NCBI GenBank assembly: GCA_963836075.1
Contig: CAWIIB010000001.1
Coordinates: forward strand, 1,152,001-1,216,000
From: an uncultured Acidobacteriota bacterium
GTDB lineage: Bacteria; Acidobacteriota; JAQAZP01
Length of the DNA stretch: 64,000 nucleotides
Direction of reading: 5' to 3'
Part shown: positions 20,854-54,830 of the stretch, in pieces
Position numbering within the stretch: the first letter of the stretch is position 1
Layout: each line of letters opens with the position of its first letter
Translations under genes and position numbers: made by a program
Notes under the pieces: model-generated
Told to the model about the DNA's origin: nothing
What the model saw: only the letters and a program-made list of their open reading frames with translations
Databases searched by the model: none

Positions 20854-20951
20854 CGGACCTGGTTTTCCTCTTTGTAACAGTGATGGATCAGGATAGGGTT
20901 TTCACCGGTCGGCGTCAAGAAGAAGGAGCCCAACATCCAAACAAGTGTCTT

Positions 20952-21665
20952 TTATTCAACAGCTTGTTCGGCCGGCCCAGGGTGGCCGTTCCGCTCCAGG
21001 AGGTCAAGGATGGCAGGAAAACCGCCCGAATCACAGACCAGATCGGCCCTCTCCGCCAGCTCCTCGTGGCGCGGGTTGACGGCCACGGCAAGACCGGCGC
21101 GGCCAAAGAGATCGAGGTCGTCCCGGCTGTCGCCCACCGCCATTGTCTCTTCCGGCTGGACGCGGTACCGCTCCTGGATCAACTGGAGCACCCGCCCCTT
21201 GCCGCCGATGGGCACCACCACGTCCACCTGCCCGGTGATCAACCCGTCGCGGATCACCAGCCGGTTGGCAAAGACCTGATCGACGCCAAGTTCCAGGCGC
21301 GCCCGGTCGGTCATCACCGTGAGGCCCGACGAGATCACCGCCAGCCGCAGCCCCAGCTCCTCCTTCATCCGCCTCAGGCACTCCGCTACGCCGGGCAGGA
21401 AATTGACCTCGGCGGTGATCTGCTGGAGACGTTCCAGCGACATGCCGGCCCAGTGGCCGGCATCGAGGCGGGCAAACTCCTCATAGCTGATCTCTCCACG
21501 GCGAAACTGCTCCTGGTGCACCGAGGCCTCGCCCTCCCAGATGCCCAGACGCTCGTGGTAGTATTGCCAGCTGCTGACGCAGTCGGTCAGAGTGCCGTCC
21601 ATGTCGAAAACGGCCAGTTTATATGTCGGAGGCGCCGCTTCGGCCTCCACGCCGGATGTCCGCAT
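20952..21665 (-). CDS. HAD-IB phosphatase (phosphoserine phosphatase-like)
   Basis: FDMDGTL, ISSG, K, VGDSRDD; real start MRTSG at 21665 (the track ORF is over-extended). Confidence 0.88.
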   Translation of the reverse strand: MRTSGVEAEAAPPTYKLAVFDMDGTLTDCVSSWQYYHERLGIWEGEASVHQEQFRRGEISYEEFARLDAGHWAGMSLERLQQITAEVNFLPGVAECLRRMKEELGLRLAVISSGLTVMTDRARLELGVDQVFANRLVIRDGLITGQVDVVVPIGGKGRVLQLIQERYRVQPEETMAVGDSRDDLDLFGRAGLAVAVNPRHEELAERADLVCDSGGFPAILDLLERNGHPGPAEQAVE

Positions 21666-21779
21666 CTCTTTGCGCCCTCCCCGGGGCCTGGGATAAAATC
21701 GCTCGATTTCAAGCACCGGAGTATACCTGCTGACCGAGTTTTCCGCCATAGTGACCGAACCGATCCGAGGAACCCGGCC

Positions 21780-35477: not shown

Positions 35478-35708
35478 AGCATATCAGTGTTCCAAGACAT
35501 TCTGTTCTCTGAAATCAATGCGGCAGAAAGCCTCACGGCGGCGCACCGGCACGTGTCACGACCTCAGTGAACGAGGACCGGACACGGAGAACTATTTACA
35601 GTGAGTTCCAGTTATTATGAAATACGCATAAAGAATGATATAAGCGACCCATCACGATTGCCGGCACGGGTGCGCCGGCCCGTCGGACCTTCTCGAGAGA
35701 GCTTGACC

Positions 35709-36668
35709 ATGCGCAGCACAACACTGGCCGTGACCGGGGCAGGGGGTTTCATCGGTACCTCGCTGGTCCGCGTGCTGGCTGGACACGGCCGGTCCGTTCG
35801 GGCCCTGCTGGGGCCTCCGGGCTCCGGCAGTGAGCCCGCACTCCAGGGGGTGGAAACATGCCGCGCCGAGATCGATGATCCCCGGGCGATGGGCAAGCTG
35901 GTGGACGGTGCCGGTGTGGTGGTTCACCTGGCTGGACTTCCCTCGGTGGCCGATTCGTTCCGGCGCCCGGCCGAACACGCGAGGGTTCATGTGGTGGGCA
36001 CGGCGACACTCCTCGAGGCGTGCCGCAATGCCGGGGTGCAGCGGTTCATCTACATCTCATCGGCGGAGGTCTACGGCCAACCGGAAGCCGATCAGGTTTC
36101 CGAATCACATCGCCTGCAGGCCCGGTCGCCATATGCCGCGGCGAAGATCTGCGCGGAGCAGTTCATCCGGGCCCATGTGAGGAGCGGTGCGGGGGAGGCC
36201 GTGGTGCTGCGACCTTTTTCGGTCTACGGTCCGGGGCAGGCGGCGGGGAGTCTTCTGGACACCATCATTTACCAGGCCGGGAGCGCAGACCGCGTGTGCC
36301 TCTTCGATCTGGGGCCCGTGCGCGACTATTGCCATGTGGGTGACGTGTGCGACGCCATTCATCGCGCCGTCTCGGCACCGATTCCGAATCCATTCAGGGT
36401 ATACAACATCGGTTCCGGCCGCGGCGTTTCGGTCAGGGAACTGGCTGAACTGACCCTGGAAGCCCTTGGCCTGACCCGCGAGATCGTCGATCAGGGTAAG
36501 CACGACCGGCCGGCCGGAGCAGATATCCGGCGGCTCGTCGCCGATCCCGGGCGGGCGGCCCGCGAACTGAACTGGCGCAGCGGCACCAGTCTCCGCCAGG
36601 GGCTTCAAGCGACCATAGGACAACTGAACCCGGCAAATCAGGACAGCGGTTCCGGAGGCACCCTATGA
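35709..36668 (+). CDS. NAD-dependent epimerase/dehydratase (extended SDR)
   Basis: TGAGGFIG, HLAG, SSAEVYG, YAAAK, YGPGQ, RDYCHV. Confidence 0.92.
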   Translation: MRSTTLAVTGAGGFIGTSLVRVLAGHGRSVRALLGPPGSGSEPALQGVETCRAEIDDPRAMGKLVDGAGVVVHLAGLPSVADSFRRPAEHARVHVVGTATLLEACRNAGVQRFIYISSAEVYGQPEADQVSESHRLQARSPYAAAKICAEQFIRAHVRSGAGEAVVLRPFSVYGPGQAAGSLLDTIIYQAGSADRVCLFDLGPVRDYCHVGDVCDAIHRAVSAPIPNPFRVYNIGSGRGVSVRELAELTLEALGLTREIVDQGKHDRPAGADIRRLVADPGRAARELNWRSGTSLRQGLQATIGQLNPANQDSGSGGTL

Positions 36669-38839
36669 ACACTCGCATTCTGATCACCGGCGGTCAGGGT
36701 TTTATCGGCAGATACCTTGCGGCACACTGGCTCGAAGAGGATCAGCAGGCGCTGGTGATGTGCCTCGGCCGTTCAGGGCGAATGGACGACCGCTTCACCC
36801 ACCGGGTAAACCGGGGGGACATCTCCGTGCCCGCCCCGCTGCCCGCCGATTTATGCGCGGCCTTGAGCACCAACCGCTACCGCTACACCGCCCTGGACCT
36901 GCTGGACTCGCCGGCACTGAAACAGCTGAACAAGGAGTTCCGGCCCACGGTGGTCATCCATCTGGCCGGTGCCCTTCGCGATGACCCGCCGGACAGGCTC
37001 TTCCGCACCAACGTGGAAGCCACTGTTTCGCTGATCGAGTCCGTGGTGGGCTCCGGCATTTCACAACCGCTGATGATCTTCGGCTCCTCGGGCGGCGTAT
37101 ACGGAACTCCGGCGGAAGACGATCTGCCCCTCGTGGAGACGGGAACCGGCCAGCCGGTGGACCTCTATTCGGCCAGCAAGCTCGCCGCGGAACATGTTTC
37201 CCGCATTCTGTGCCAACGCTACCGGCTTCCCGCCATCTGGGCCCGGATATTCAACGTTGTGGGTCCCGGTCAGGAGGAGCGACACTTTTGCGGGCGGGTG
37301 GCGGCCCAGGCGGCGGCCATCGCCGCCGGGGTGATGAACAGCGTTCTGGAGGTTGGCACCCTGGATACAACCCGTGACTTCATCGACGTTCGGGATGTGG
37401 CCCGGGCCCTGACCTGTCTGGCGGAAAAAGGGACACCGGGCGACGTGTACAACCTCGCCAGCGGTGAGGAGACACCAATCGAGCGGGTGCTGAGGGATAC
37501 CCTGCGGCTGGCCGGTCTGGAGGGACGCGTGGACATCCGGACCCTGCCCGGCCGGCCGGCTGACATTCCCAGACATTTTGGATCGATCCAGCGGATTCGG
37601 GCCCTGGGGTATTCGCCCCGGCACCCCCTTGCAGGCAGCCTGCAGGATGTCCTCGATTACTACCGCCACGATGTCCGGTCAGCAGCCCGCCGGTCCAGTG
37701 AAGCCGGCCCCGAGGACCGCCGGTCGCTGGAGGTGTGCGTCTCAGCGAAACACACCTGTCCGGTGGCCATCGAGCCGGGGCTGATGGCTGAGCTGCCCCG
37801 GCGCCTGATCAATCGTTTTCCCTGCGCCCGTATGGTGGTGCTCACCGACACCCGGGTTGGTGGTCTCTATGCTGAGGACCTGGCGCAGCGGATGGAGTCC
37901 GCGGGGATTAACACCGGCCTGGTGATTCTGCCCGAGGGGGAGGCCTCAAAAACCTTTGAGCAGTTTCATCGCCTTATCGCCGAACTCCACGACCTCGATT
38001 TCGACCGCCGTGCCGTGCTGGTCAACGTGGGCGGCGGGGTGGTCACCGATACCGGCGGTTTCGTTGCCGCAACCTATATGCGCGGTGTGGCCTACGTCAA
38101 TGTGCCCACCACCCTGCTGGCCCAGCACGATGCGGCCGTGGGGGGCAAGGTGGCGGTGAACACGGACTGGGCCAAGAACTTTTGCGGCGCGTTCCATCAA
38201 CCGTGCGCCGTGTTCGCCGACCCGTGCGTCCTGAGCTCCCTCGAGGACCGCGAGATCTCAGCCGGTGTGGCCGAAGCGATCAAGGTCGCCATCACCGGTG
38301 AACCGGCGCTGTTCGAACTGCTGGAGCGCTCGTCCCGGAGCATCCGGGCCGAGCGTGACCCGGAGGTGCTGGCCCGAATGCTCCGGCTTGCCGTGTCCCG
38401 CAAGATCGCATTGCTCCAGCCGGATCCATACGAAGTCGATCTTCGGCGCGTGCTGAACCTCGGACACACCTTCGGGCACCCGCTGGAAACCGAACTGACC
38501 TATTGCGGGATCCGGCACGGCGAGGCCGTCGGTTTCGGCATCGCCGTGGCCACCGAGGTGGCCACGGCCCGGGGGGTGTGCGAAGGGATGGCCGCCCGCC
38601 GGATTCTCCAACTCCTGAAAACGTATGATCTCCCGCCACACGTGCCCCGTTCCCGGTTGATGGCGGCATGCCGCCGTCTGAGGGAGATCCGGCTGGTCCG
38701 CGGCGGCAAGCTGCTTTTCGTCCTTCCCACCGGGATATCCTCGGTGCAGATCGTGGATGAGGTGGGTGATGATGAAATTCTGGCGGCCATCGAACGACTG
38801 GCCGTCGATCCGCTGCTCGCCTGCTGCGTCGAGGGCTGA
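36665..38839 (+). CDS. fusion: extended SDR + sugar-phosphate cyclase (DHQS-fold, probably sedoheptulose-7-P cyclase)
   Basis: N-half TGGQGFIG, YSASK, RIFNVVGPGQ, RDFIDVRD. C-half GEASK, GGGVVTD, RGVAYVNVPTTLLAQHDAAVGGK, KN, EAIK, LNLGHTFGH, HGEAV. Confidence 0.88.
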   Translation: MNTRILITGGQGFIGRYLAAHWLEEDQQALVMCLGRSGRMDDRFTHRVNRGDISVPAPLPADLCAALSTNRYRYTALDLLDSPALKQLNKEFRPTVVIHLAGALRDDPPDRLFRTNVEATVSLIESVVGSGISQPLMIFGSSGGVYGTPAEDDLPLVETGTGQPVDLYSASKLAAEHVSRILCQRYRLPAIWARIFNVVGPGQEERHFCGRVAAQAAAIAAGVMNSVLEVGTLDTTRDFIDVRDVARALTCLAEKGTPGDVYNLASGEETPIERVLRDTLRLAGLEGRVDIRTLPGRPADIPRHFGSIQRIRALGYSPRHPLAGSLQDVLDYYRHDVRSAARRSSEAGPEDRRSLEVCVSAKHTCPVAIEPGLMAELPRRLINRFPCARMVVLTDTRVGGLYAEDLAQRMESAGINTGLVILPEGEASKTFEQFHRLIAELHDLDFDRRAVLVNVGGGVVTDTGGFVAATYMRGVAYVNVPTTLLAQHDAAVGGKVAVNTDWAKNFCGAFHQPCAVFADPCVLSSLEDREISAGVAEAIKVAITGEPALFELLERSSRSIRAERDPEVLARMLRLAVSRKIALLQPDPYEVDLRRVLNLGHTFGHPLETELTYCGIRHGEAVGFGIAVATEVATARGVCEGMAARRILQLLKTYDLPPHVPRSRLMAACRRLREIRLVRGGKLLFVLPTGISSVQIVDEVGDDEILAAIERLAVDPLLACCVEG

Positions 38840-38899
38840 CCGCTGTCCGGTTCCACCGGGCCGAACGATTTCCGAACCACTGATAACGAGGACCCCATT

Positions 38900-39463
38900 A
38901 TGGTAAAACCACCCTTCGGCACAGCAGAAGAGAAAAAATGGCAGGTCATGGATCAGAAGGCGGTCACCCGAAACCCGTGGTACAGAGTGCTGGAGAGCCG
39001 GGTGCAGATGCCCGATGGCCGCACAACCACCTACCACATCCTCGACTTTCTCAAGTCAGCGGTGGGTGTGGTGGCCCGCCGCGACAACGAGATTCTGCTC
39101 ATCCGCCAATACCGCTTCATCATCGACCAGTTCGTCTGGGCCATCCCCTCCGGCGGCAGTGAGGGGAATGAGGACCCCCGGGTGGCCGCCGAACGGGAAC
39201 TGGAGGAGGAAACCGGATACCGGGCAGAGCAATTGACGAGGATCCACAGCTACTTCCCCTCGTATGGCTGCGGGAACCAGGTGTTTCACCTGTTCCTGGC
39301 CGAGGGGATACACTCCTCGCCGCAACGGTTCGACCGCAACGAGGTGCTGGAGGTGCGCTGGTTCCCGATCCGGGAAATCAAAGAGATGATCCTCGCCGGA
39401 CATATGGTGGACGGGCTTTCCCTCACTCCGCTGCTCTTCCTCTTCGCCCGTGAGGGTTGGTAG
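38900..39463 (+). CDS. Nudix hydrolase (ADP-ribose/NDP-sugar pyrophosphatase-like)
   Basis: GGSEGNEDPRVAAERELEEETG; RQYR. Confidence 0.9.
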   Translation: MVKPPFGTAEEKKWQVMDQKAVTRNPWYRVLESRVQMPDGRTTTYHILDFLKSAVGVVARRDNEILLIRQYRFIIDQFVWAIPSGGSEGNEDPRVAAERELEEETGYRAEQLTRIHSYFPSYGCGNQVFHLFLAEGIHSSPQRFDRNEVLEVRWFPIREIKEMILAGHMVDGLSLTPLLFLFAREGW

Positions 39464-39491
39464 CCGGGCTGAGGGTCCTGCTCAGCCCGGC
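39463..39491. terminator. hairpin at the junction of the two convergent operons
   Basis: GCCGGGCTGAG-N7-CTCAGCCCGGC overlapping both Nudix stop codons. Confidence 0.55.
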
Positions 39492-39955
39492 AGCCAGCCC
39501 TTGTCCAGAACATCCCGCAGCGCACTGCCGGTCAGGGGGTTGAGCCGCTCGAGCCGCAGGGCCTCTTCGTAGCGCACCCAACGGTTGACCCTTCCTTCAC
39601 GCTGGACCATCTCCCCATCCCACGACTCGACGATGTAAACGAAGTGGCGGTAAAAGATTCCGCTCACCGGTTCCAGGTCATCCTGGACGGCAGCGAGGAA
39701 GAACCTCCGGGGGATGATGGACAGCTCTTCCTCCATTTCCCGCAGCAGGGCGAGCTCCGGCGTCTCCCCATGCTCCACGTGGCCCCCGGGAAAATCCCAG
39801 ACGCCGGCATAGACCCTGGCGTCGTCGGGCCGCCGCTCCAGCAGCAGTTTCCCCTGCCGGGTCAGCAGCGCCCCGGCCGTGCAGCGCTGCGGCACGTGCC
39901 CGTCAACCGGTCGGATTTCAGCAGGACGATAGGTGCGGGGGCCATGATCGTTCAT
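39482..39955 (-). CDS. Nudix hydrolase (MutT-like)
   Basis: WDFPGGHVEHGETPELALLREMEEEL. Confidence 0.9.
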   Translation of the reverse strand: MNDHGPRTYRPAEIRPVDGHVPQRCTAGALLTRQGKLLLERRPDDARVYAGVWDFPGGHVEHGETPELALLREMEEELSIIPRRFFLAAVQDDLEPVSGIFYRHFVYIVESWDGEMVQREGRVNRWVRYEEALRLERLNPLTGSALRDVLDKGWLPG

Positions 39956-39959
39956 CGGG

Positions 39960-40478
39960 TCAACCTGTCTCCTCGATATGTATCCACCTGTTTCTCCGCG
40001 CGGCGGCGTCCATGGCATCGAGATAGGCCCGGGGTTCAAAACCCACGCCGCCGAGCACTCTCCGGGCCTCGTTCACCAGGACGATCTCCGGCCGGCGGGC
40101 ATAGAACGTCCTTTCGGCGGGGGGAAAGAGTGCCATGATCTCCCGGGCGCCGTGGACCGCCAGGCCCGACGCCGCAAAAAGAGACGCCGGCCAGAAGGGC
40201 AGGACGATGACCTTCACCATCCCCGCCCCGTGACAGTGGGCCTGTTCACGCATCCGCTCCAGCAGCTCGTAGGTGTAGAGATGAAGAAAGACCTCGTCAG
40301 GTACGCGGCAACCCGCCGGACCGCCGGGCCCCGACTCCGCCAGGCGGCGGAGAGCCACGCAATACTCGCCGGTATCCGGCATCAGTGGCGCTCGCCGGTC
40401 ATCAACGCCGGGAAGCTCCGCCACCAGGCCGCCGCCGAAACCGGCATCGATCAACCGGATAAACCCGTTTGCGTTCAT
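39960..40478 (-). CDS. degenerate NMP-kinase-like protein (putative pseudokinase)
   Basis: AREIMALFPPAERTFY and ARRN match the adjacent kinase domain; no GxxGxGK. Confidence 0.55.
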   Translation of the reverse strand: MNANGFIRLIDAGFGGGLVAELPGVDDRRAPLMPDTGEYCVALRRLAESGPGGPAGCRVPDEVFLHLYTYELLERMREQAHCHGAGMVKVIVLPFWPASLFAASGLAVHGAREIMALFPPAERTFYARRPEIVLVNEARRVLGGVGFEPRAYLDAMDAAARRNRWIHIEETG

Positions 40479-40491
40479 TCGACCTGGTCTT

Positions 40492-41805
40492 TCATGGTGT
40501 CCCGCTCCGCAAATCCACCAGCCGGGCCGCATCCTCGATGATAATCCGCGAATTCTCCTCGAAGCTCTTCCGGCCATCCAGGACGAGGAAACCGTTCCGT
40601 CGGGCCAGGTCGAGAAAGGCGTGCCGGTATCGAGACAGCATATACGGGTTCTCGTCCACCGTTTTTTGATCCCGGGTCCCGATCCGGCGCAGAGCCTCCC
40701 CGGCCGGCAGATCCAGCAGGTAGATCCGGTGGGCTGGAGGAAACACCGCCAGCAGCTCCCTGGTGAAGGGATCGTGGTGGTAACGGCCCATACCGGCGGC
40801 ATGGTGGGTGAAGACATACCTGTCGAAAATCACCGCATCACAGGCGCCCAGCTGCTCCTCCACCGTGGAGTAATAGTATTTGACCGAATCGAAAGCCTTG
40901 GCCAAGCGCTGTATTCGCCATAGATGCAGGTTGCGTCCGCCGGCGCACTGCCGCGTCAGTTCGGTCACGGTGTCGTGGAACAGACCGTGACGGTAGATCT
41001 TCTGTACCGAGGTGCGGAACCCCCGCCCGGTGAGATATGTTTCCAGGGCTGCCACGTGGCTCGACTTCCCCGAACCGTCGATGCCGCACACGCCGATGAT
41101 CAGCGGCGTGTGCTCCGCACTGCGGCGGCCCGGCACCTCCGGTGTTCCGGGTTCAGCGGTTGGCGCTTGCACCTCGAAGCGGTCCATCAGGCATTCCTCG
41201 TGCAGATCGATGCCGGCCAGCGCATAGTTTTCCAGGGCCATGAAGAGAGGCATCCGGTCGGGATAGAGCAGCCCGACCAGTTGCCGGTACAGCTCCCGCA
41301 GCGTCGGGGGATACGAATCGCCGGGAAGTATGCCCCACCATGAGGGGAGAAGACGTGTCTCCACGGGGCCCGGCAGAGCCTGCGGATCAGCATCCTCCAC
41401 ACGCTCTGCGGACCCGGCCGGCGGCGCCGTCACGAAATAGGGGATGATGCCGCAGAGGCGGAACAGCATGTTGGGCCCCGAGAGCGCTTGCAGCGCCATG
41501 TTCAGCCGCTGTTCCAGCCCGCGACCCGGATGGAGCGGCAGCAGCGGCTGGGCAGCGGGGTCCTGGGCGCGGTCCAGCAGCCGGGAAGGGGCTTCCGGAC
41601 TGCTGAGGCTGTGGCTTTCGAACTGCCAGGCGCCGGAGGAGTCTTGCGTGACCAGCACTACCTCCCCCGACCCGGCCCGGCCGGCGGCCTCGGTGAGCAG
41701 GGATTCCAGCGGCCGAGACGAAAACCGGGCCAGTTCTGGAAACAGCCAGGCCAGTGGCCCCGGAGACGCTGTGCTGAATGTGGCGCTACCTGTTTGTTGT
41801 GTCAT
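40492..41805 (-). CDS. unknown N-terminal domain + thymidylate-kinase-like P-loop domain
   Basis: GIDGSGKSS, VIFDRY, LLDLP..ALRRI. Confidence 0.8.
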   Translation of the reverse strand: MTQQTGSATFSTASPGPLAWLFPELARFSSRPLESLLTEAAGRAGSGEVVLVTQDSSGAWQFESHSLSSPEAPSRLLDRAQDPAAQPLLPLHPGRGLEQRLNMALQALSGPNMLFRLCGIIPYFVTAPPAGSAERVEDADPQALPGPVETRLLPSWWGILPGDSYPPTLRELYRQLVGLLYPDRMPLFMALENYALAGIDLHEECLMDRFEVQAPTAEPGTPEVPGRRSAEHTPLIIGVCGIDGSGKSSHVAALETYLTGRGFRTSVQKIYRHGLFHDTVTELTRQCAGGRNLHLWRIQRLAKAFDSVKYYYSTVEEQLGACDAVIFDRYVFTHHAAGMGRYHHDPFTRELLAVFPPAHRIYLLDLPAGEALRRIGTRDQKTVDENPYMLSRYRHAFLDLARRNGFLVLDGRKSFEENSRIIIEDAARLVDLRSGTP

Positions 41806-42809
41806 GGGACGATGTTTTCGATCAGTTGGGCGTTGCGGTCAGCAAGGCTGTTGCCGGCATACATTTCTTCCAACGGGTCGGTACCGATTTCATACAGTCC
41901 GATCACCGTGTGCAGCAGGCTTAGCCACCGGGGCAGGCAACCGCGAACCAGTTCGAGCAGCGCCTCCCTCAGGGGCGGGTGGTGGATGCCGTAGCGGGCC
42001 GCCCAGGCCGGCCCGTGCGGTCCAGTCTCCAACAGGGGGCCTGGGTCCGCGCAGACCAGGCGGCACCGGTGGGGACCGGCCCGCTCGATGAAAGCCATGG
42101 AACAGCGCAGCCAGTCCTTGTGGAGGCTCTCCACTCCCTGTTCACCGGCGGGCAGAGTGAGACCGTAGATCACCGTCCCGTCATCGCCGGCCAGACCGTC
42201 CGTCTCCGGCTCGGAATCCGCAGCCCCGGGCTGGAACACCTCGATACGCCCGACCCAGGGGGGAACCGACCCGGCGCGCCCCCGGGACCGGCGCCGAAAA
42301 CCGCGACCCACTGCTTCAAAGGTCACGCCCAGGTCCGGTGGCCGCTCCCCGGCGTCAGCGATCAGCAGCACCGGAAAGGGGTGTTGAACTGCCGGGTCCG
42401 GCCCCGGAAGGAGTTCTGCGGGCCGCGGCAGTTTCTCCACGGCCCGCCGCAATTGAGGGATGATGTCCGATCCATCCGCGCTGGAGAGAAGCGGGGCCGG
42501 GCAGTTGATGCCGGACCGGACCAGGGCGCAGCGGAGGATGTCCGCCCCGGTGCGGTCGTGATCTCCTCCGACCACCAGGGCCCGGGCAACACCTTCGCCG
42601 GCCAGCAGTGATGCGCTCTGCCCTGCCGTAGACCCCGAAGATCCGAGGTCCAGCTGAACCGGATACCCCCGGCGGCGCCACCGGGCCACGGCCGACGCCA
42701 GGCGGGACGCCAGGCGGGCCCGCCCCAGGTCGGGGAGGAACAGGCCGCCCAGATAGTCGAACTCGGGAGGCATGATCACCCGCAGTCTGCTGTCGCCCAG
42801 TTCGGCCAT
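41802..42809 (-). CDS. hypothetical protein (N-terminus reminiscent of B12-binding domains)
   Basis: In-operon ORF with ATGA coupling; RVIMPP...PDLGRARLASRL...GYPVQLD; no CxxxCxxC. Confidence 0.65.
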   Translation of the reverse strand: MAELGDSRLRVIMPPEFDYLGGLFLPDLGRARLASRLASAVARWRRRGYPVQLDLGSSGSTAGQSASLLAGEGVARALVVGGDHDRTGADILRCALVRSGINCPAPLLSSADGSDIIPQLRRAVEKLPRPAELLPGPDPAVQHPFPVLLIADAGERPPDLGVTFEAVGRGFRRRSRGRAGSVPPWVGRIEVFQPGAADSEPETDGLAGDDGTVIYGLTLPAGEQGVESLHKDWLRCSMAFIERAGPHRCRLVCADPGPLLETGPHGPAWAARYGIHHPPLREALLELVRGCLPRWLSLLHTVIGLYEIGTDPLEEMYAGNSLADRNAQLIENIVP

Positions 42810-42813
42810 GAGA

Positions 42814-43770
42814 TCACCACCACCGGGATTCCCGCCCGCCCTCCGGCAACAGCGGCCTGAGTTCGGACACCGCTTTCTTCAGCCCGTCCCGGGGACCGAA
42901 GACCGGGTCCTCGTTCTCCACCGCCAGGTAGCCGCCATACCCGCTGAGTTGGAGTTCACTGATCAGCCGCTTCCAGGGCACGTCCCCCCATCCCGGGATC
43001 CGGAACCGGAATCCGCGATCCGGGCGATCCCAGGCACCGCGGGCCAGCAGGCCCGAGCGAGCGGCGTTGTGGGGCACAACCTCACCGTCCTTGGCGTGGA
43101 CATGGAAGATTCGCCCTTCCAGTTCCCGGACAAAGAGCACCGGGTCCACTCCGGCCAGCAGCAGGTTGGCCGGGTCCAGATTGAAGCCCCACCGCTGGTG
43201 GCCGCCCAGAATGCTCACACTTTCCAGCGCGGTTTCGGTGTTGTAGACCATCTGTTTCGGATGGGGCTCCTGGGCAAAGCGCACACCCAGCGAATCGAAC
43301 TGCTCCAGCAGGCGGCCCACCCGCTCCTGGAAGACGGGAATCATTTTCTCCCACCCCTGCGGGTCGGGCCAGGGGTAGAACCGCGAGTAGTCCTCGCAAC
43401 CCAGGAAACCCACCACCAGCCCCACGTCGAGGTCCGCGGCCAGACGGGCCGTCTGGAGCAGCCGAGCCGCGGCATGGGCGATTTTTTCGGCGGGCGACCC
43501 GGGGTGGACGGCATCGGTATCCCGGTGGTGGGGCCCCAGCAGGAGCTGCCCCTCCTGGTGGTTGGAAATGGCCGAGATCTCCAGCCCGAAACCGGCAATG
43601 CGTTTCTTCAGTCCTGCAGCGCCGCCGGAGAGCAACGGTTCCAGATCGACCCATGGGCTGCGGCCGTCCACCGGCAGTTCAAGAGCGCTCACCCCCAGGT
43701 CGGCCATGAAACGGAGCCCCTCATCCAGGGTCATGGAATAGAGGGGTTGCGGGCACATGGACAGTTTCAT
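42814..43770 (-). CDS. xylose-isomerase-like TIM barrel (sugar phosphate isomerase/epimerase, IolE-like)
   Basis: EPHP, GFNLDPANL, FHVHAKD, FRIPGWGDVPW, VENED. Confidence 0.9.
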   Translation of the reverse strand: MKLSMCPQPLYSMTLDEGLRFMADLGVSALELPVDGRSPWVDLEPLLSGGAAGLKKRIAGFGLEISAISNHQEGQLLLGPHHRDTDAVHPGSPAEKIAHAAARLLQTARLAADLDVGLVVGFLGCEDYSRFYPWPDPQGWEKMIPVFQERVGRLLEQFDSLGVRFAQEPHPKQMVYNTETALESVSILGGHQRWGFNLDPANLLLAGVDPVLFVRELEGRIFHVHAKDGEVVPHNAARSGLLARGAWDRPDRGFRFRIPGWGDVPWKRLISELQLSGYGGYLAVENEDPVFGPRDGLKKAVSELRPLLPEGGRESRWW

Positions 43771-44789
43771 CACTTCACACCTCCCACCACTCCCGGCGTT
43801 GCACCGGGCGCTCGGATGAGGGACGGATAATCACACGCCGCGCAGGGGAATTCCCGAGGATGTTCGTCCTTCAGCAGGGCGCGCCGGATCTCCATCATAC
43901 GCGGACCGGTCCACAGATCCTCCAGGCTCGAACGGTTTACGTTCCCGATCACGGTGCTGCGCATCCAGTCGCAATTGCAGAGCACCATGTCACCGTTGTA
44001 CAGCACGTAAGCTTTGACGAACGGCCGCTGGCACACCCGGCGCGGCCCGGCCGCTTCCCCGGCAGTTGTCCAGCGGCTGGTCCTGATCAGTCCCGCACGG
44101 TTGGTCACCGGTTTCAGGAACACGTCAAATCCTGTCTCCTCACGGAAGCGATCACTGGCCTCCCGCACCCCGGGCAGGTCCAGACTGACCACCCTGATGC
44201 GCATCGTTCCCAGGTGCCCACAGCGAACCAGCCGTCCCACCCGGCGAAGATTTTCCATCACCCGGTGAAAGTCGACGCCCTGCATGACCCGGTCATGCTG
44301 CCGCCGGTCGAACCCGTTGATCGACACGTTGACCTCGTCCAGCCCGGCCTCGGCAAGCCCGCGGGCCCGCCGCTCCGACAGCAGAAGGCCGTTGGTGTAC
44401 AGCAGGGCCGCGGTGTCCGGGTCCCGGCCCTTGAGCTGGGCGGTGAAACGCTCGATCCGCCGGTCCAGCAACGGCTCGTTCATCAGGAAGAGACTGGTCC
44501 GTTCCACGCCCCGGCCCGCCATCTGGTCAACAATGGTGTCGAAAGTGTGGTCGGACATCTCACCCTGGGGCAACTGCCGGCGAACCGCGGGGTAGGGGCA
44601 GGTCAGACATTGGCCATTGCACCGGCTGGTGGTCTGGATCTGGATCTTGACGAAAAAGGGCAGAGCGTGCGCTTCGATATTGTCCACGGTCACGGCACCG
44701 CGACGGAGCTTGCAGACAAGTCCCCGCTCGCGTTGCCCTTCGGTGATCCTGTCAAAAACGGTGCTCATTTCAGTGTCCGCATCCACCAT
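43770..44789 (-). CDS. radical SAM protein with SPASM/twitch domain
   Basis: CNGQCLTC, NEPLL, TNG, CQRPF..GDMVLCNCD..IGNV..CAAC. Confidence 0.92.
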   Translation of the reverse strand: MVDADTEMSTVFDRITEGQRERGLVCKLRRGAVTVDNIEAHALPFFVKIQIQTTSRCNGQCLTCPYPAVRRQLPQGEMSDHTFDTIVDQMAGRGVERTSLFLMNEPLLDRRIERFTAQLKGRDPDTAALLYTNGLLLSERRARGLAEAGLDEVNVSINGFDRRQHDRVMQGVDFHRVMENLRRVGRLVRCGHLGTMRIRVVSLDLPGVREASDRFREETGFDVFLKPVTNRAGLIRTSRWTTAGEAAGPRRVCQRPFVKAYVLYNGDMVLCNCDWMRSTVIGNVNRSSLEDLWTGPRMMEIRRALLKDEHPREFPCAACDYPSLIRAPGATPGVVGGVK

Positions 44790-46054
44790 CAATCGGCCAC
44801 CTGCCGCAGGACCAGCGGCGTCATGGCCCGTGCGTTCTGTTCATCGATGCCCAGCGGGTGCGCGCGCAGTGCGGCGGTGATACTGACCGGGTGCCGATCC
44901 AGTGCCGCCTGCAGCGCAGCCGCCTCGTAGCGGGCCAGCTTTCCGAGCATCTGCAAAAAGGGATCGAGCCTTCCCCCGGACACGGGTTGCGGTCCGGTGA
45001 ATGGTATCATGCGCCCACCGGCCGGGCCGAGGATGGAGCGCTTTTCCACGATGGCCCCGGGGGGAAGACCCGGGATGTCCGACCCGTTGGCCTCGGAGAG
45101 GTAGAGGCACCGCTCCCCTCCCCCCAGCAGGGCGGAAATGGCTGGGACCAGAGCCAGTTCGAACCACCGCAGGTCACGCTGGTCCATGAAACCGGGCAGG
45201 CCGGGCTCTCCCGACCTGCCGTACCATTCGAAAAGCCTGGCGGAGAGTTCGCTCAGCGTCTCCCCCCGGCTCTGGCTTTTCCTGGCCAGCATCTGCGCCT
45301 CACGGGCCGTGTGGTAATAGAGGCGCATGTAAGGCAGCGGCAGGGCGTGGACCCGCTTCATCACCTGCGGGTCCACCCGAAAGAAGTCGTCCCCCGTACA
45401 GGATGTGATCCGGTCAAAGAGTTCGGGCAACAGGTCGCGACCCTGCCCGACCAGGCGCACGAACCACCCCTGGTGATTCAGGCCCAGATAGTCCGCGTCC
45501 AGCTGGTCCGTCCGCAATCCGATCAACCGGGCGGCCCTGTGCAATACGCAGCCCGGGAGCTCGCAGATTCCGAAAGACCGCAGTTCCGGCACGCGTTTCA
45601 GGGCGGCCAGCAGAATTCCCACGGGATTGGTCATGTTGATGAACCAGGCCCCGGGAGCTACCCGAGCCGCCTGTCTCGCCGCCTCCAGCACCACCGGTAC
45701 ACCGCGCACCGCCGAAGCCAGCCCGCCGGGGCCGATGGTTTCATCCCCCGGCAGACCGTAAGCAAGGGGAAACCGTTCGTCGTGGCTGCGGCCTGGCCAA
45801 CCGCCGATGCGCATCTGGTTGATGATGATCGCGGCACCCTCGGCCGCGGCACTGATGGAGGTGACGGCCGAGTAGTGCTGCGGCTGGTGGCGTCCAGCGG
45901 CCTGGCGGTTACAGACCCGGGTCACGGCAGCCAGCCGCTCCGCGTTCCGGCCGTGAAGCCGCACCTCCAGCGGGGGCAGTCTGTCCGCGGCGTCGGCCAG
46001 CGCTCTGGCCAGGGCGGGCGTGAAGGCGCTGGATCCGCCAAGCACAGCCACCAC
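44789..46054 (-). CDS. family 4 glycoside hydrolase (6-phospho-beta-glucosidase-like, NAD+/Mn2+)
   Basis: LGGSSAFTP, QMRIGG..RSHDERFPL, ETIGPGG, NMTNP, GICELP, GLNHQGW; start uncertain. Confidence 0.88.
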   Translation of the reverse strand: MVAVLGGSSAFTPALARALADAADRLPPLEVRLHGRNAERLAAVTRVCNRQAAGRHQPQHYSAVTSISAAAEGAAIIINQMRIGGWPGRSHDERFPLAYGLPGDETIGPGGLASAVRGVPVVLEAARQAARVAPGAWFINMTNPVGILLAALKRVPELRSFGICELPGCVLHRAARLIGLRTDQLDADYLGLNHQGWFVRLVGQGRDLLPELFDRITSCTGDDFFRVDPQVMKRVHALPLPYMRLYYHTAREAQMLARKSQSRGETLSELSARLFEWYGRSGEPGLPGFMDQRDLRWFELALVPAISALLGGGERCLYLSEANGSDIPGLPPGAIVEKRSILGPAGGRMIPFTGPQPVSGGRLDPFLQMLGKLARYEAAALQAALDRHPVSITAALRAHPLGIDEQNARAMTPLVLRQVAD

Positions 46055-46073
46055 GGCCCCGCCCGGCGTTGTC

Positions 46074-47198
46074 TCACTCCCCGAAAAAAAGTCTGACCTG
46101 CTCGCAGACATACTCCACCTGGGTGTTGGTGATCTCCGGCGCAACGGGAAGCGACAGGACCGTGCGGCAGCACTCCTCGGTGATCGGGAAGTCGCCCTCC
46201 CGGTATCCAAGGTCCAGATCCAGTTGCTGCAGATGAGGCGGAATGGGGTAGTGCAGTCCGGCGTTGATTCCCGCGGATTTGAGGTGACTGCGCAGTTCAT
46301 CGCGCCGGGCCGAGCGGACGACGTAGAGGTGATAGACATGACTGAGATCACCCGGGTCGTGGGGCAACCGGAGGTCGCCCACTCCCGCCAGCAGTTCCCG
46401 GTACAGAGCGGCGATCTCCCGCCGGCGGCGGTTCCACCCGTCCAGGCGTCTCAGCTTGTGCCGCAGGATCACCGCCTGGATCGTGTCCAGCTTGGTGTTG
46501 GGCGCCGCGCAGCCGACATCGTACTTGGTTGTCTTGCCCAGATTACGCATCACCCGGAGCATCTCCGCCAATCGGGTGTCCGAGGTGGTAATCATCCCCC
46601 CGTCGCCAAAGGCGCCAAGGTTTTTGCTGGGGTGGAAACTGAAGCACCCCATGGCACCGTATGCGCCCACCGCGCGGCCATCCCCGCCGACGGCCCCGTG
46701 GGCCTGGGCCGCATCTTCAACCACCGCCACCTGCCGGCCCTGACAGAGGGCACAGATATCCTCCAGGGGAGCCACCGCGCCATAGAGGTGAACCGGTATC
46801 ACCGCGGCCGTCCTGCGGGTCAGGCCCTGCTCCAGACCCCGGGCCGTGATATTCATCGTCTCAGGATCAGGCTCCACCAGAACCGGCCTGGCTCCAGCCA
46901 TGATGATGGCACTCACCGTGGCGATGAAGGTGTTGGCCGCGGTGACCACCTCGTCCCCGGGCCCGATCCCCAGGGCCCGCAAGGCGAGGAGCAACGCGTC
47001 GGTCCCCGAATTGAGGCCGACGGCCTGGCTGGTGCCGGCCAGCGCGGCGAACTCCTGTTCAAAGGTTTCCACCGGTTTCCCGAGAACGGGATTCTCCTCC
47101 AGTAGAGCCCGCCGGAGCGCGGGGAGGAGCTCCGGGAGCAGTTCGCGGTACTGCAGGGCATAATCCTTGGAGGGGACCTTGTATTTTTTGCCGTCCAT
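46074..47198 (-). CDS. DegT/DnrJ/EryC1/StrS PLP aminotransferase
   Basis: NSGTDAL, PVHLYG, EDAAQAHG, SFHPSKNLGAFGDGG. Confidence 0.95.
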   Translation of the reverse strand: MDGKKYKVPSKDYALQYRELLPELLPALRRALLEENPVLGKPVETFEQEFAALAGTSQAVGLNSGTDALLLALRALGIGPGDEVVTAANTFIATVSAIIMAGARPVLVEPDPETMNITARGLEQGLTRRTAAVIPVHLYGAVAPLEDICALCQGRQVAVVEDAAQAHGAVGGDGRAVGAYGAMGCFSFHPSKNLGAFGDGGMITTSDTRLAEMLRVMRNLGKTTKYDVGCAAPNTKLDTIQAVILRHKLRRLDGWNRRRREIAALYRELLAGVGDLRLPHDPGDLSHVYHLYVVRSARRDELRSHLKSAGINAGLHYPIPPHLQQLDLDLGYREGDFPITEECCRTVLSLPVAPEITNTQVEYVCEQVRLFFGE

Positions 47199-47204
47199 CA
47201 GCGT

Positions 47205-48125
47205 TCACCCGTTGCGCACGTGATCCCTGATCAGGCCCGCTGCTCCGAACGCACCAACCTGCGGGCCGAGGGCCGACGTCTCGATGAGAGCATGACCCGC
47301 CGATTCGTTGAAGGCGCGGCGCCGGACTTCGTCGCGCACCGTCTGCAGATAGTTGTGACCGATCAGGGGTACACCACCGGTCAGCACCACCAGGTCAGGA
47401 TTGAAGATGTTGATGATGTTGGCCACCCCGGCCCCCAGGGCCCGGGCGCCCTCCTCGACGGCCTGGGCGGCGGCCTTGTCGCCGCTCCGCGCTGCCGCGG
47501 CAACGCTCTCCACGGTGACCGGCGCGGGAAGATCCTTGACTCCCAGTTCCAGGGCCCGTCGGGAGATGGCGCTTCCCGAAGCCAGGGTGTTCAGGCACCC
47601 CCGATTGCCGCACCAGCAGCTCCGGCCCTGCCACTGGATGGTGGTGTTGCCGAACTCGGCGGACGTTCCGGTGGACCCGCGGTAGAGCCGACCGTCGATG
47701 ATGATCGCCCCGCCGATGCCCGTGCCCACGGTGAGCAGGATCATGTTCAATCCCGGCGGGGAGCCGCGGGCCAGCCACTCGCCGTAACCGGCGGCGGTGG
47801 CGTCGTTGTCCACCAGGCAGGGCAGGCCGTCCAGCCCCCGGGAGAGCATGGCGGCCAGGTGGACCTGGTCCCATCCGGGAAGGATCACCGAACTGAGAAC
47901 CAGTCCCTGCCGCATGTCCACCAGACCGGCGAACCCGACACCCACACCGCGCGGGGTCCCGTGCCGGCCCGCAAGATCGCGGCCCACACCGATGGCACGT
48001 TCGATGACCCGCTGCGGTCCGTCCTCGCGCCCCGTGGCAATCTTCAGCGTGTCCAGGACACGGAGGTCCTCCGATACGGCGGCGCCCAGGATCTTTGTCC
48101 CCCCGATGTCGAGGCCCAGATACAT
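47205..48125 (-). CDS. ROK family kinase with altered sugar-binding residues
   Basis: DIGGTK, NDATAA, GTGIGG, EFGN, CWCGNRGCLN. Confidence 0.9.
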   Translation of the reverse strand: MYLGLDIGGTKILGAAVSEDLRVLDTLKIATGREDGPQRVIERAIGVGRDLAGRHGTPRGVGVGFAGLVDMRQGLVLSSVILPGWDQVHLAAMLSRGLDGLPCLVDNDATAAGYGEWLARGSPPGLNMILLTVGTGIGGAIIIDGRLYRGSTGTSAEFGNTTIQWQGRSCWCGNRGCLNTLASGSAISRRALELGVKDLPAPVTVESVAAAARSGDKAAAQAVEEGARALGAGVANIINIFNPDLVVLTGGVPLIGHNYLQTVRDEVRRRAFNESAGHALIETSALGPQVGAFGAAGLIRDHVRNG

Positions 48126-48159
48126 CGTCTTGCCTCCACCCGCACGACCGGTCCGAGAA

Positions 48160-48918
48160 TCAGCCGGGGGGATCCTCAAACCCGCCAAGCTCGTCGGGAT
48201 CCAGCCCGAAAGCGGCCGGATCCCTGGCCACCATGGCATAACCGGTGTTCAGGTCATCCTCGTCGTTGATATCGATCCATGGTTCCTGGTGATGATGCTC
48301 CATGACGACCATCCCGGCAGCCAGGGCCCGCTGTACCAGATCAGGAAAGGGGAGTACTTCGCCACGCTTCAGAAGGGCGATGAGCCGCGGTTCGATACAG
48401 TAGATTCCGGAAGATATCCGGTATTCCTTCACTGGCTTTTCCACGTAACCGGTCACCCGGTTTCCCGTGTCACTGAAGACCTCTCCCAGCTTCAGACGGA
48501 CCCGCTCCGTGTGGGTGGGGATGGTCATGTCGGCCCCGGCCCCGCGGTGGAAAGCCAGCAGAGCCCTGAGGTCGATTCCCGAAAGCAGATCACCGTTGGC
48601 CGTCAACACGGTGCGGCCCAGATTCCTCAGTTCCACCAGGGCGCCGATGGTGCCCTGGGGACGGGGTTCAACAATGAAGTGCAGGGCCGAACGGCGGAAG
48701 AGGCAACTCCGTTTCAGGTGGTCCATGATCTCGTCGGCCCGATGATGGAGGGCGACGTGAATGTCCTGGACGCCCGCGGCGATGAGCTGCCGGACGGTGA
48801 TCTCGATGAGCGGGATACCGCCCAGTTTGACCAGCGGCTTGGGCACGGTGGGCCTGGTCCGGGCCATGCGCCGCCCTTCGCCGCCGGCCATGATCACTGC
48901 CGATACGTTCTGGGGCAT
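48160..48918 (-). CDS. sugar-phosphate nucleotidyltransferase
   Basis: IMAGGEGRRM..PKPL, EPRPQGT, NGDLL, EKP, WIDI. Confidence 0.9.
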   Translation of the reverse strand: MPQNVSAVIMAGGEGRRMARTRPTVPKPLVKLGGIPLIEITVRQLIAAGVQDIHVALHHRADEIMDHLKRSCLFRRSALHFIVEPRPQGTIGALVELRNLGRTVLTANGDLLSGIDLRALLAFHRGAGADMTIPTHTERVRLKLGEVFSDTGNRVTGYVEKPVKEYRISSGIYCIEPRLIALLKRGEVLPFPDLVQRALAAGMVVMEHHHQEPWIDINDEDDLNTGYAMVARDPAAFGLDPDELGGFEDPPG

Positions 48919-48930
48919 CTGTCCCGTCCT

Positions 48931-49302
48931 TCAGACCCTGACCTCGATCACGAACAGTTTCAGCGGGTCTTTGCCGTCATTGCACAGCCCATGGGTACCG
49001 CCGGGCCGATTGAGAACCACGCTCCCCGGCCTGACGCGGAATTCCCGTCCATCGAGGTGCATCAGCCCCTCACCCTCCAATACGAGATACAACTCCTCGC
49101 TCGCGCCGTGGGTGTGCCTGCCGATGGAACTTCCCGGCGGCAGGACGGCATAGTCGATAAAATTCCACGGCCCGCTGAAGTCTCCCGCCTCCCGGGCCCT
49201 GTTGAAGAGAATCTTCCCCGCACCGCCATGGGCCTGCACCTCATCCAGGGGCAACTGGTCCAGATTGAACACCTGCCGGTAGTGGCTTTCCGGACTGTTC
49301 AT
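48931..49302 (-). CDS. cupin domain protein
   Basis: PGSSIGRHTH..EELYLVLEGEG..PGGTHGL. Confidence 0.9.
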   Translation of the reverse strand: MNSPESHYRQVFNLDQLPLDEVQAHGGAGKILFNRAREAGDFSGPWNFIDYAVLPPGSSIGRHTHGASEELYLVLEGEGLMHLDGREFRVRPGSVVLNRPGGTHGLCNDGKDPLKLFVIEVRV

Positions 49303-54063: not shown

Positions 54064-54830
54064 GGGTTTTGAGGAACATTCCTGACGTCAAGCTTACACG
54101 TGCCGAAAGGTGGATCGCCTCTCTTCCGGTGGAGCTGCAGGAAATACATGCCGGGCTCCGAAAATCTGAGCGGCAACAGCAGGCTCAGGTCAGGTCCGAT
54201 GACCGCATCGAGCACTTCTGGCTGCCCCTGCCCGTCTGTCACAACACAATGAACATTGTCGCCGGGAAGGAACTCGGGATCGTCCAGGCGGTAGTCGATG
54301 ATGACCACCTCGCCAACCTGCAATCGTTCGACCGCCCCATCTTCCCCGGCGGAACGGCTCACCGACTGCTCAAACCCGATGAACCGCGCCGTTCCCAGCA
54401 GCTCGATCGGCGGTTCCGTCGTCACCCGGCCGGCATAGACCACCAGCATCAGCAGTGCGATTCCGGCGGCCAACGGCACATAGAGGGGAACATTCACCTG
54501 CCAGAGCCAGTCGAGCATCTTGATGGGACCCGCGCGCCCGGCACTTCTCTCAAATCCCAGCCGCCGGGCCACATCATCGACCTCCTTCACCTGCCGGCGG
54601 CGGTAGGCAACACTTAAACCACTCACCTCCTCTGATTCCGCCAGCCGTTCCAGAACCATGGCGCAGCTCGGGCAGTTGTGCAGGTGCAGTTCGAGAAGCC
54701 GCGAATCCTCCCCGCTCAGCTCACCGTCCAGGTGACCCGCCAGTTCCTCCGGGGAAGGACAGTCCCGTCGTGCACTGCGGATTCGCCGAATCTCCTCGTC
54801 GATCTCGTGGTGACTGTTGTTCATGCTCAC
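54060..54830 (-). CDS. zinc-binding (ZAS) membrane anti-sigma factor
   Basis: CPSPEELAGHLDGEL..HLHNCPSC, one TM (LYVPLAAGIALLMLVVYA), beta-rich C-terminal domain. Confidence 0.85.
   Translation of the reverse strand: MSMNNSHHEIDEEIRRIRSARRDCPSPEELAGHLDGELSGEDSRLLELHLHNCPSCAMVLERLAESEEVSGLSVAYRRRQVKEVDDVARRLGFERSAGRAGPIKMLDWLWQVNVPLYVPLAAGIALLMLVVYAGRVTTEPPIELLGTARFIGFEQSVSRSAGEDGAVERLQVGEVVIIDYRLDDPEFLPGDNVHCVVTDGQGQPEVLDAVIGPDLSLLLPLRFSEPGMYFLQLHRKRGDPPFGTCKLDVRNVPQNP

Follow-up and report, generated by a model that had tools for sequence, protein, structure and literature searches.

What kind of enzyme results when a short-chain dehydrogenase/reductase (SDR) and a sugar-phosphate cyclase share one reading frame, and what does the cyclase make? 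The question is raised by an open reading frame (ORF) at 36665..38839 (+) in a 64,000-nucleotide stretch of an uncultured Acidobacteriota bacterium (GTDB lineage JAQAZP01; assembly GCA_963836075.1, contig CAWIIB010000001.1, positions 1,152,001 to 1,216,000), which is the window analyzed here and to which coordinates refer unless stated otherwise. An original prediction, made from the sequence alone, had read this frame as an SDR joined to a domain of the 3-dehydroquinate synthase (DHQS) fold that differs from AroB. Here, we report that the ORF is predicted to encode a bifunctional enzyme, consisting of an N-terminal NADPH-type extended SDR ketoreductase and a C-terminal DHQS-fold cyclase, and that the cyclase resembles 2-epi-valiolone synthase (EVS); taken as a whole, this explanation is probably correct. 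The fusion is a new architectural variant of a known, poorly understood kind of enzyme, in a conserved cluster.

The ORF (P0001) starts with ATG and runs for 724 codons with no stop inside the frame, and its ATG overlaps the stop of an upstream SDR gene (35601..36668) by 4 bases. Pfam places an Epimerase domain (PF01370) at residues 5 to 265, DHQ_synthase at 420 to 532, and DHQS_C at 534 to 661, confirming the 724-amino-acid (aa) SDR-cyclase frame that had been proposed. All of its parts lie on the plus strand. The extended-SDR domain covers approximately residues 1 to 340 (36665..37684; Pfam PF01370 and PF16363, conserved columns in 20 homologues, and PDB matches). It is followed by a linker of approximately residues 341 to 360 (37685..37744), which in the alignment of 20 fusions varies in length and sequence, some homologues having inserts of 10 to 70 aa. 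The remainder is the predicted EVS-type, DHQS-fold sugar-phosphate cyclase domain (37745..38836; Pfam, TIGR01357 score, and trees). It contains the fingerprint K580...D587-P-Y-E590...R594-R595..N598..H601...H605 (38402..38479), invariant in 20/20 aligned fusions, and, by alignments, E674-I-R-L-V-R679 (38684..38701) in place of the D-K-K of DHQS. Both strings quoted in the original prediction were located in the translation, KIALLQPDPYEVDLRRVLNLGHTFGH at residues 580 to 605 and REIRLVRGG at residues 673 to 681, and the retained K...R..N..H...H that it described is this invariant pattern.

The fusion is not an assembly artifact, because at least 120 full-length homologues (664 to 782 aa, 47 to 60% identity) exist in a collection of 5.8 billion proteins, with both Pfam domains in all those listed; source names among the listed homologues include Gemmatimonadales, Myxococcales/Kofleriaceae, Polarisedimenticolia, and Microthrixaceae. 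Genomic context was taken from the 20 closest loci in a scan of species-representative genomes, all independent assemblies. The same fusion was present in 14 of these, was broken by a contig end in 1, and was truly unfused in 5, all or mostly Planctomycetota, in which the cyclase stands alone. That an assembly or frameshift error joined two neighboring genes has a negligible probability. The same clade does contain unfused cyclases, and one database protein (P0155) is a read-through chimera of just such a kind (cyclase plus ROK kinase); against this stand the full-length two-domain homologues, the 14 independent loci, the uninterrupted frame, and a conserved N terminus beginning at 36665. P0155, which is annotated with ROK and DHQS domains, had itself been considered as a cyclase::ROK Rosetta-stone fusion and was rejected; its middle consists of Arg/Ala-rich nonsense, and the protein is a frameshift read-through of adjacent genes. 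At an E value of 1e-60, the fusion was absent from the 40 related genomes searched (0/2 of the same genus), and composition was unremarkable at the 2-kb scale; absence from related genomes together with presence in several phyla fits an accessory, horizontally moving cluster.

Is the cyclase simply the AroB of this organism? Its score with the aroB equivalog model TIGR01357 was 298.3 bits (301 bits in the genome scan), not reaching the cutoff of 305. Its best PDB matches were DHQS (3okf; 2.5e-61), desmethyl-4-deoxygadusol synthase (DDGS; 5tpr) and ValA (4p53; both approximately 1e-38), and the synthase of 2-deoxy-scyllo-inosose (DOIS; 2d2x, 1.7e-28). On raw similarity, this ranking and the near-cutoff score make it AroB-like. 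It shares with AroB the fold, the metal and NAD motifs, the DHQS-type K580, R594, N598, and H605, and approximately 35% identity to the AroB of its own genome and to those of Klebsiella and Sinorhizobium. It differs in remaining below the model cutoff, in carrying I-R-L for D-K-K, P-Y for E-R (588 and 589), and N for Q (479), in its position outside the AroB rows in the tree, and in its lack of shikimate context. No shikimate-pathway Pfam domain was found in the 20 neighboring ORFs scanned (24812 to 50383), as had been predicted; the cluster contains neither a synthase of 3-deoxy-D-arabino-heptulosonate 7-phosphate (DAHP) or aminoDAHP nor a dehydroquinase, and the two DAHP_synth_1 genes of the genome lie approximately 440 and 600 kb away. 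The search for a separate aroB, which the original prediction had proposed, found a second DHQS-family gene (C1:165286-166233 of the same genome) that scores 321.8 bits with TIGR01357, above the cutoff, and keeps DKK. Score and motif are what point to a housekeeping role for this gene, since its neighbors are non-shikimate genes: within C1:163786-167733 (L001), the flanking genes are a SLOG/LOG-like one and one for a TPR protein, and neither aroK nor aroC is among them. The fusion domain thus neither groups with AroB nor is the sole DHQS of the genome, and its predicted assignment as a second, non-AroB enzyme of the DHQS fold, not the housekeeping AroB, holds.

Single residues of the cyclase were compared in an alignment of 97 cyclase sequences. 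The HMMER alignment to the Vibrio DHQS 3okf sets the R-D-K-K-V of that protein against E-I-R-L-V of the fusion, with D-K-K replaced by I-R-L at 675 to 677, followed by V-R. The DKK motif of DHQS supplies a phosphate-binding Lys. Position 676 is K in 59/59 DKK-type AroB-like rows and R or K in the 27 rows of the fusion's family and its allies; among the 20 family rows, it is R in 90%. Both comparisons agree with the earlier statement that the C-terminal DKK is missing and that REIRLVRGG stands there instead. The positions setting the family apart from AroB are R449, N479 (Q in AroB), V496 (T), A503 (G), P588-Y589 (E-R), and R676 (K). P588 and an aromatic residue at 589 are common to the family and EboD, and R679 is common to the family and cyclases of sedoheptulose 7-phosphate (SH7P).

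The main tree (IQ-TREE maximum likelihood, 57 rows, LG+C20+F+G4) was rooted on two plasmid DOIS genes, and placements were read from branch supports. Plasmid genes labeled by context or by the NCBI annotation pipeline (PGAP) stand in the trees for ValA, BtrC, RifG, and Amir_2000, and the tree rows do not include Staur_3140 either. All DKK-less rows except DOIS form one 28-row clade (support, 100/99), consisting of the family, three plasmid PGAP-named SH7P cyclases, four EboD from ebo operons, an actinomycete clade, and two single rows. The family has 14 rows (96/96), and the subclade holding the fused forms has 11 (100/99; one unfused). Outside the DKK-less clade lie four AroB with aroK/aroC neighbors, the genome's own AroB, and two rows from the context of aminodehydroquinate (aminoDHQ) synthases (L093 and L094), one of them from an ansamycin-like locus with RifI/K/L/M/N-like neighbors; both retain DKK and fall with an actinomycete AroB, well away from the family. 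A Rif-type kanosamine/aminoDHQ reading of the locus was rejected on the grounds that these references keep DKK and group elsewhere and that the cluster is without an aminoDAHP synthase.

Which of the remaining cyclase types does the domain resemble? At positions 580, 594, 598, and 605, the family has K, R, N, and H, with H601 kept too. PGAP-named SH7P cyclases have M, a variable residue, D, and P; M580, D598, and P605, typical of the synthase of 2-epi-5-epi-valiolone (EEVS), are present in 3/3 of these and are K, N, and H in the fusion cyclase, which is in line with the predicted lack of the EEVS-type M...DFGHSFSP. EboD has H, A/S, D, and H; the fusion has K580/N598 instead of H580/D598, and unlike in ebo loci, no UbiA or EboA/B/F homologue was found among the neighbors. 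DOIS has K, A/G, E, and H, against R594 and N598 in the fusion. Toward the EEVS/DDGS type as a whole (ValA 4p53, DDGS 5tpr, and the PGAP-named plasmid genes L088 to L090), the likeness consists in the shared DKK-less clade (100/99), R679, and the presence of ROK, cupin, TIM barrel, and DegT genes among the neighbors; the difference consists in the three residues M580/D598/P605 and an identity of 30 to 32%.

By eye, the fingerprint found its match among EVS-labeled sequences. Supplementary files 1 and 2 of Osborn et al. 2015 (PMC4426668) list Amir_2000 (Actinosynnema mirum) and Staur_3140 (Stigmatella aurantiaca) as EVS, experimentally assigned, and print their sequences together with two more EVS-labeled ones, from Cystobacter fuscus and Solirubrobacter soli. 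In a visual comparison, not a computed alignment, the four printed sequences carry K..DP[YF]E.DLRR.LN.GH..GH, common to the fusion cyclase, and, at the DKK site, I-R-Q-I-R, A-R-L-V-R, or V-R-L-I-R ([IVA]-R-[LQ]-[IV]-R). The family fingerprint is K..DPYE.DLRR.LN.GH..GH plus [IV]-R-x-[IV]-R instead of DKK. On visual impression only, the printed Staur_3140 motifs have more in common with the family consensus than with the motifs of the actinomycete type. Two proteins that by eye closely resemble Amir_2000, P0202 (Micromonospora) and P0240 (Streptacidiphilus), fall within the actinomycete clade (100), itself inside the DKK-less clade (99), and share 44% identity with the cyclase domain of the fusion. 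The retained K580, R594, and N598 had been considered as a sign of a carboxylate (DAHP-like) substrate; this was dropped, and the three residues are not proof of such a substrate, because the EVS-labeled sequences of the supplement share them. In the sections of Yurchenko et al. 2016 (PMC5133447) drawn on here, the confirmed-EVS clade is described as one that would pass for DHQS without biochemical data. The window cyclase thus has in common with the supplement's EVS the DHQS fold, the fingerprint, an R-containing replacement of DKK, and a DHQS-like look; it differs in being fused to an extended SDR, and its family clade lies beside, not inside, the clade of the Amir_2000-like proxies. As judged from sequence, the classification as a predicted EVS-like domain, i.e., of the 2-epi-valiolone-synthase type, holds, and the original prediction, which had named such a cyclase as one option, is sustained by a domain outside AroB whose fingerprint matches the four printed sequences by eye.

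The N-terminal half has the hallmarks of an extended, RMD-like 4-ketoreductase SDR (GxxGxxG and Ser-Tyr-Lys). The TGGQGFIG Rossmann motif (T8-G9..G12..G15), S141, and K172 are invariant in 20 homologues, and Y168 is present in at least 90% of them. G35-R36-S37 follows the second strand and is kept in the alignment of 20 fusions; G-R-S at this place is typical of NADPH-using SDR reductases. The best PDB matches were the RMD reductases 2pk3 (3e-37) and 6x3b (2e-29), which are GDP-6-deoxy-D-lyxo-4-hexulose and GDP-6-deoxy-D-mannose reductases, and all NCBIfam SDR equivalogs were far under cutoff for the fusion ORF. As the original prediction had proposed, the fused SDR may reduce the ketone product of the cyclase or a later nucleoside diphosphate (NDP)-cyclitol.

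The fusion stands in a cluster of two convergent operons (35601 to 49302). Conservation was counted by searching the window proteins against the 20 related loci, and the counts are lower bounds because many contigs are short. On the plus strand, the upstream, translationally coupled gene at 35601..36668 encodes a second extended SDR (Pfam; best PDB matches, MoeE5 and GalE-type epimerases; 11/20 loci), and the fusion is followed by a NudE-like NUDIX hydrolase (38900..39463; 2/20). The minus-strand operon contains a MutT-like NUDIX hydrolase (39482..40039; 5/20), a P-loop kinase with a thymidylate-kinase-like C-terminal half (40492..41805; 8/20), and a 335-aa ORF without a family match (41802..42809), which, like the flanking deacetylase and GT2 genes, was found in 0/20 related loci. 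The best-conserved neighbor is a xylose-isomerase-like TIM barrel (42814..43773; 15/20, 52 to 65% identity). Its PDB matches were 2zds (3e-30) and 8ro4, a 2-hydroxy-3-keto-glucal hydratase (5e-20), an enzyme name for which a full-text literature search gave no match. A BtrN-like radical SAM/SPASM enzyme (43770..44792; 7/20) has the 2-deoxy-scyllo-inosamine dehydrogenase BtrN (4m7t) as its best PDB match (2.6e-17; runner-up, 2e-5), spanning only the N-terminal core at residues 42 to 157. Next come a GH4-family NAD/Mn enzyme (44789..46351; best PDB matches, 6-phospho-beta-glucosidases; 10/20), an ORF that overlaps the DegT gene and so probably has its true start downstream of 46351, and a DegT/DnrJ/EryC1 aminotransferase (46074..47198; 6/20), which is 44% identical to the DegT of a Streptomyces clavuligerus SH7P-cyclase cluster. 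The operon further includes a ROK-family kinase (47205..48239; 18/20, usually directly downstream of the cyclase; start uncertain, the ORF overlapping the next) and a sugar-1-phosphate nucleotidyltransferase (48160..48918; best NCBIfam match, mannose-1-P guanylyltransferase, under cutoff; 17/20). Just upstream of the latter lies a 123-aa small cupin (48931..49302; 16/20), 38% identical to a cupin adjoining an SH7P cyclase on a Bacillus plasmid. A GT4-like glycosyltransferase was present in 11/20 related loci. No cluster protein attained any curated NCBIfam cutoff.

Similar gene sets surround other DKK-less cyclases. A ROK gene adjoins the cyclase in 3/3 PGAP-named SH7P-cyclase clusters, together with a TIM barrel, cupin, or DegT gene. 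The actinomycete EVS-like clade has a kinase, a TIM barrel, a nucleotidyltransferase, and an SDR beside the cyclase. Around related cyclases, one Actinoallomurus locus combines an RmlD-like SDR and the cyclase with a fused BadF/BadG kinase and TIM barrel and with a nucleotidyltransferase; cyclase, kinase, and TIM barrel occur together in an Actinoplanes locus; and in a Thermoleophilaceae locus the cyclase has a VOC protein, DegT, and a Gfo/Idh/MocA oxidoreductase as neighbors. The Actinoallomurus chromosomal fusion (L030:11011-12993) is a 660-aa ORF of a BadF/BadG-type kinase and a xylose-isomerase-like TIM barrel directly after the EVS-like cyclase, and it ties the kinase and TIM-barrel steps together. 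An unfused relative of the window cluster (L020:5427-9463) has a phosphoglucomutase/phosphomannomutase (PGM/PMM) and an old-yellow-enzyme flavin reductase replacing the P-loop kinase and the SDRs, a sign that the pathway may pass through an enone and may reach the 1-phosphate by way of a mutase. On a plasmid of Streptomyces sp. NBC_01456 (L083, 10370-19746), a DKK-less DHQS-family cyclase lies between a thiamine-pyrophosphate-dependent enzyme and a BadF/BadG kinase. Genes nearby encode a NUDIX hydrolase, an NDP-sugar synthase, an inositol-monophosphatase-family protein, and condensation and adenylation functions of nonribosomal peptide synthetases; the locus is a possible cyclitol-peptide hybrid cluster. 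A radical SAM/SPASM gene, 27% identical to that of the window, is likewise present in a plasmid DOIS cluster. The window cluster is like the butirosin 2-deoxystreptamine module (BtrC/BtrS/BtrN) in bringing together a DHQS-fold cyclase, a DegT aminotransferase, and a BtrN-like radical SAM enzyme; it differs in that its cyclase is not of the DOIS type and its radical SAM match is limited to the N-terminal core. Full-text literature searches, in which only an acarbose paper surfaced, returned no description of the cluster's gene combination; the primary EVS papers were not covered, and an earlier description is possible.

What might such a cluster make? The multi-phylum cluster probably builds a seven-carbon sugar mimic. 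Specifically, the gene content argues for an EVS-type C7-cyclitol pathway that probably leads to an NDP-activated and/or aminated pseudosugar; the substrate, product, and downstream steps that we infer follow by analogy, mainly with the acarbose steps in the consulted sections of Tsunoda et al. 2022 (PMC9200736). The NAD+- and metal-dependent cyclase domain would most likely convert SH7P to a C7 keto-cyclitol, either 2-epi-valiolone or one of its close stereoisomers, by the mechanism expected of its family, i.e., transient oxidation, phosphate elimination, reduction, and intramolecular aldol addition. The ROK kinase would phosphorylate the primary hydroxyl of the cyclitol, as AcbM and ValC do. 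The TIM barrel and/or cupin would epimerize or dehydrate beside the ketone (the roles of AcbO and AcbL), and an SDR would reduce the ketone (the role of AcbN). A C1 phosphate would come from the P-loop kinase or, in one relative, from the PGM/PMM mutase (filling in for AcbU and AcbJ), and the nucleotidyltransferase would yield an NDP-pseudosugar, probably GDP linked, as with AcbR and VldB. Oxidation of a hydroxyl would be the task of the BtrN-like radical SAM or GH4 enzyme, with DegT then carrying out the amination, and the GT4 enzyme would join or transfer units. As far as those sections describe the acarbose/validamycin systems (AcbC/M/O/L/N/U/J/R/S; ValC and VldB), the likeness extends over a cyclase, a ROK-like cyclitol kinase, an epimerase/dehydratase, a reductase, a second kinase, a nucleotidyltransferase giving a GDP-pseudosugar, an aminotransferase, and a glycosyltransferase. 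The differences are that their cyclase is EEVS and that of the window EVS-like, and that the predicted window roles are filled by a TIM barrel, a cupin, a thymidylate-kinase-like kinase, NUDIX, GH4, and radical SAM enzymes.

Several observations weigh against this pathway. DegT, radical SAM, and NUDIX genes are found in only 2 to 7 of the 20 loci. The five unfused clusters have neither SDR in the fetched DNA, so the fused SDR appears dispensable for the core pathway. Branching among the DKK-less subclades is weak (53/30, 70/61, and 86/44), the EVS proxies P0202 and P0240 sit in the neighboring clade and not in the family's own, and clade membership with validated EVS is drawn from motifs compared by eye and from these two proxy proteins. 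The DHQS-type K580, R594, N598, and H605 are kept, at least one of which EEVS-type, EboD, and DOIS cyclases have lost; these residues and the nearly reached aroB cutoff mean that the substrate may be DAHP-like. The same residues and score also speak for another reading, in which the cyclase would be a genuine paralogue of 3-dehydroquinate (or aminoDHQ) synthase that supplies a branch of quinate-like or aminoshikimate type, with the SDR as a dehydroquinate reductase; further points in its favor are that the closest solved relative is a DHQS and that the ROK, DegT, and NAD-dependent oxidizing enzymes recall the RifN/RifK/RifL logic of the S. parvulus ansamycin-like locus. We regard this as improbable: the EVS-labeled sequences of the supplement retain the same four residues, and DKK is present in all 59 AroB-like rows and in both aminoDHQ-synthase-context rows and lost in the fusion cyclase. 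In addition, the tree places the domain apart from AroB and aminoDHQ synthases (100/99), the cluster lacks a DAHP/aminoDAHP synthase and a dehydroquinase, and the genome has a separate aroB.

A less improbable, although still unlikely, alternative keeps the cyclase in the EVS-like clade and gives it another sugar phosphate or ring product, a new specificity as with EboD. EboD was predicted for SH7P in the consulted part of PMC5133447 and, according to the portion of a review seen here (PMC12904256), uses mannose 6-phosphate; the cluster cupin resembles small mannose-6-phosphate isomerases, the family (96/96) is separate from the actinomycete Amir_2000-like clade, and it has fixed positions of its own (R449, N479, V496, A503, and P588-Y589). 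Against these, 22/22 fingerprint positions compared between the family and the actinomycete clade are identical or conservatively varied, and by eye the printed Staur_3140 motifs are very near the family consensus. A possibility to be taken more seriously, if still doubtful, concerns the SDR and not the cyclase: the cyclase would be of the EVS type, and the fused SDR would never touch the cyclitol, the SDRs, nucleotidyltransferase, and DegT making an NDP-6-deoxy- or 4-amino-4,6-dideoxy-hexose instead. That the hexose would later be joined to the cyclitol, as is dTDP-4-amino-4,6-dideoxyglucose in acarbose (a precedent from the consulted sections of PMC9200736), so that the fusion reflects a pathway partnership and not consecutive steps, is conceivable to the same limited degree. 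The solved relatives of the fused SDR, 2pk3 and 6x3b, are GDP-4-keto-6-deoxyhexose reductases; the two SDR genes are translationally coupled and occur together in 11/14 fused loci; and the best NCBIfam matches, both under cutoff, are mannose-1-P guanylyltransferase for the nucleotidyltransferase and LegB for the upstream SDR. Five clusters have the cyclase, ROK, TIM barrel, and cupin and no SDR, and since they work without an SDR nearby, the fused SDR could equally serve a nucleotide-sugar branch. However, the best solved relatives of the upstream SDR are 4-epimerases (MoeE5 and GalE), not 4,6-dehydratases, DegT was detected in only 3/14 fused loci (L003, L006, and L016), and the RmlD-like SDR beside the actinomycete EVS-like cyclase has no BLASTP match to the fusion at an E value of 1e-3. 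The presence of this unrelated SDR beside an EVS-like cyclase suggests that a reductase has been recruited more than once to the cyclase itself.

Other genes of the window lie outside the cluster. An HMG-CoA reductase gene (19480-20853, minus strand; PF00368, 1.6e-104) points to a mevalonate pathway. A long ORF (20880-24215, plus strand) has DEAD_2, HBB, and Helicase_C_2 domains in its C-terminal half and resembles a DinG/XPD-like helicase; its first approximately 500 residues are without a match, and its true start may lie further downstream. Adjoining the cluster on the other side (50752-55456, minus strand), genes for a 1103-aa TPR and CHAT protein, a zf-HC2 anti-sigma-like protein, and an ECF-type sigma factor likely form a signaling module.

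EVS is the least understood SH7P cyclase. In the consulted portion of PMC5133447, its product is a precursor of uncharacterized final metabolites, and according to the part of a 2022 preprint seen here (bioRxiv 2022.09.27.509721), no cyclase other than EEVS is known to lead to C7N-aminocyclitols. A conserved multi-phylum cluster around an EVS-type cyclase provides a concrete gene set for the missing EVS pathway and candidates for new pseudosugar-modifying enzyme families. It also yields a label-correcting sequence rule (K/R/N/H kept and DKK replaced by [IV]-R-x-[IV]-R), which matters because the listed full-length homologues are mostly named "3-dehydroquinate synthase" or "iron-containing alcohol dehydrogenase" by their source. 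As a tentative proposal that goes further, the cluster could be the missing downstream pathway of the orphan EVS, leading from SH7P to a carbasugar of the (2-epi-)valienol type, activated with GDP, and to an aminocyclitol as its partner; a GT4 enzyme might join or transfer these to give either an envelope glycoconjugate or an N-linked pseudo-oligosaccharide. The TIM barrel would then be a new valiolone dehydratase/epimerase and the thymidylate-kinase-like protein a new cyclitol-phosphate kinase, in a cluster spread horizontally over Myxococcota, Gemmatimonadota, Planctomycetota, Actinomycetota, and candidate phyla. New pseudosugar scaffolds from such a pathway would be of practical interest, since C7-cyclitol products include acarbose and validamycin.

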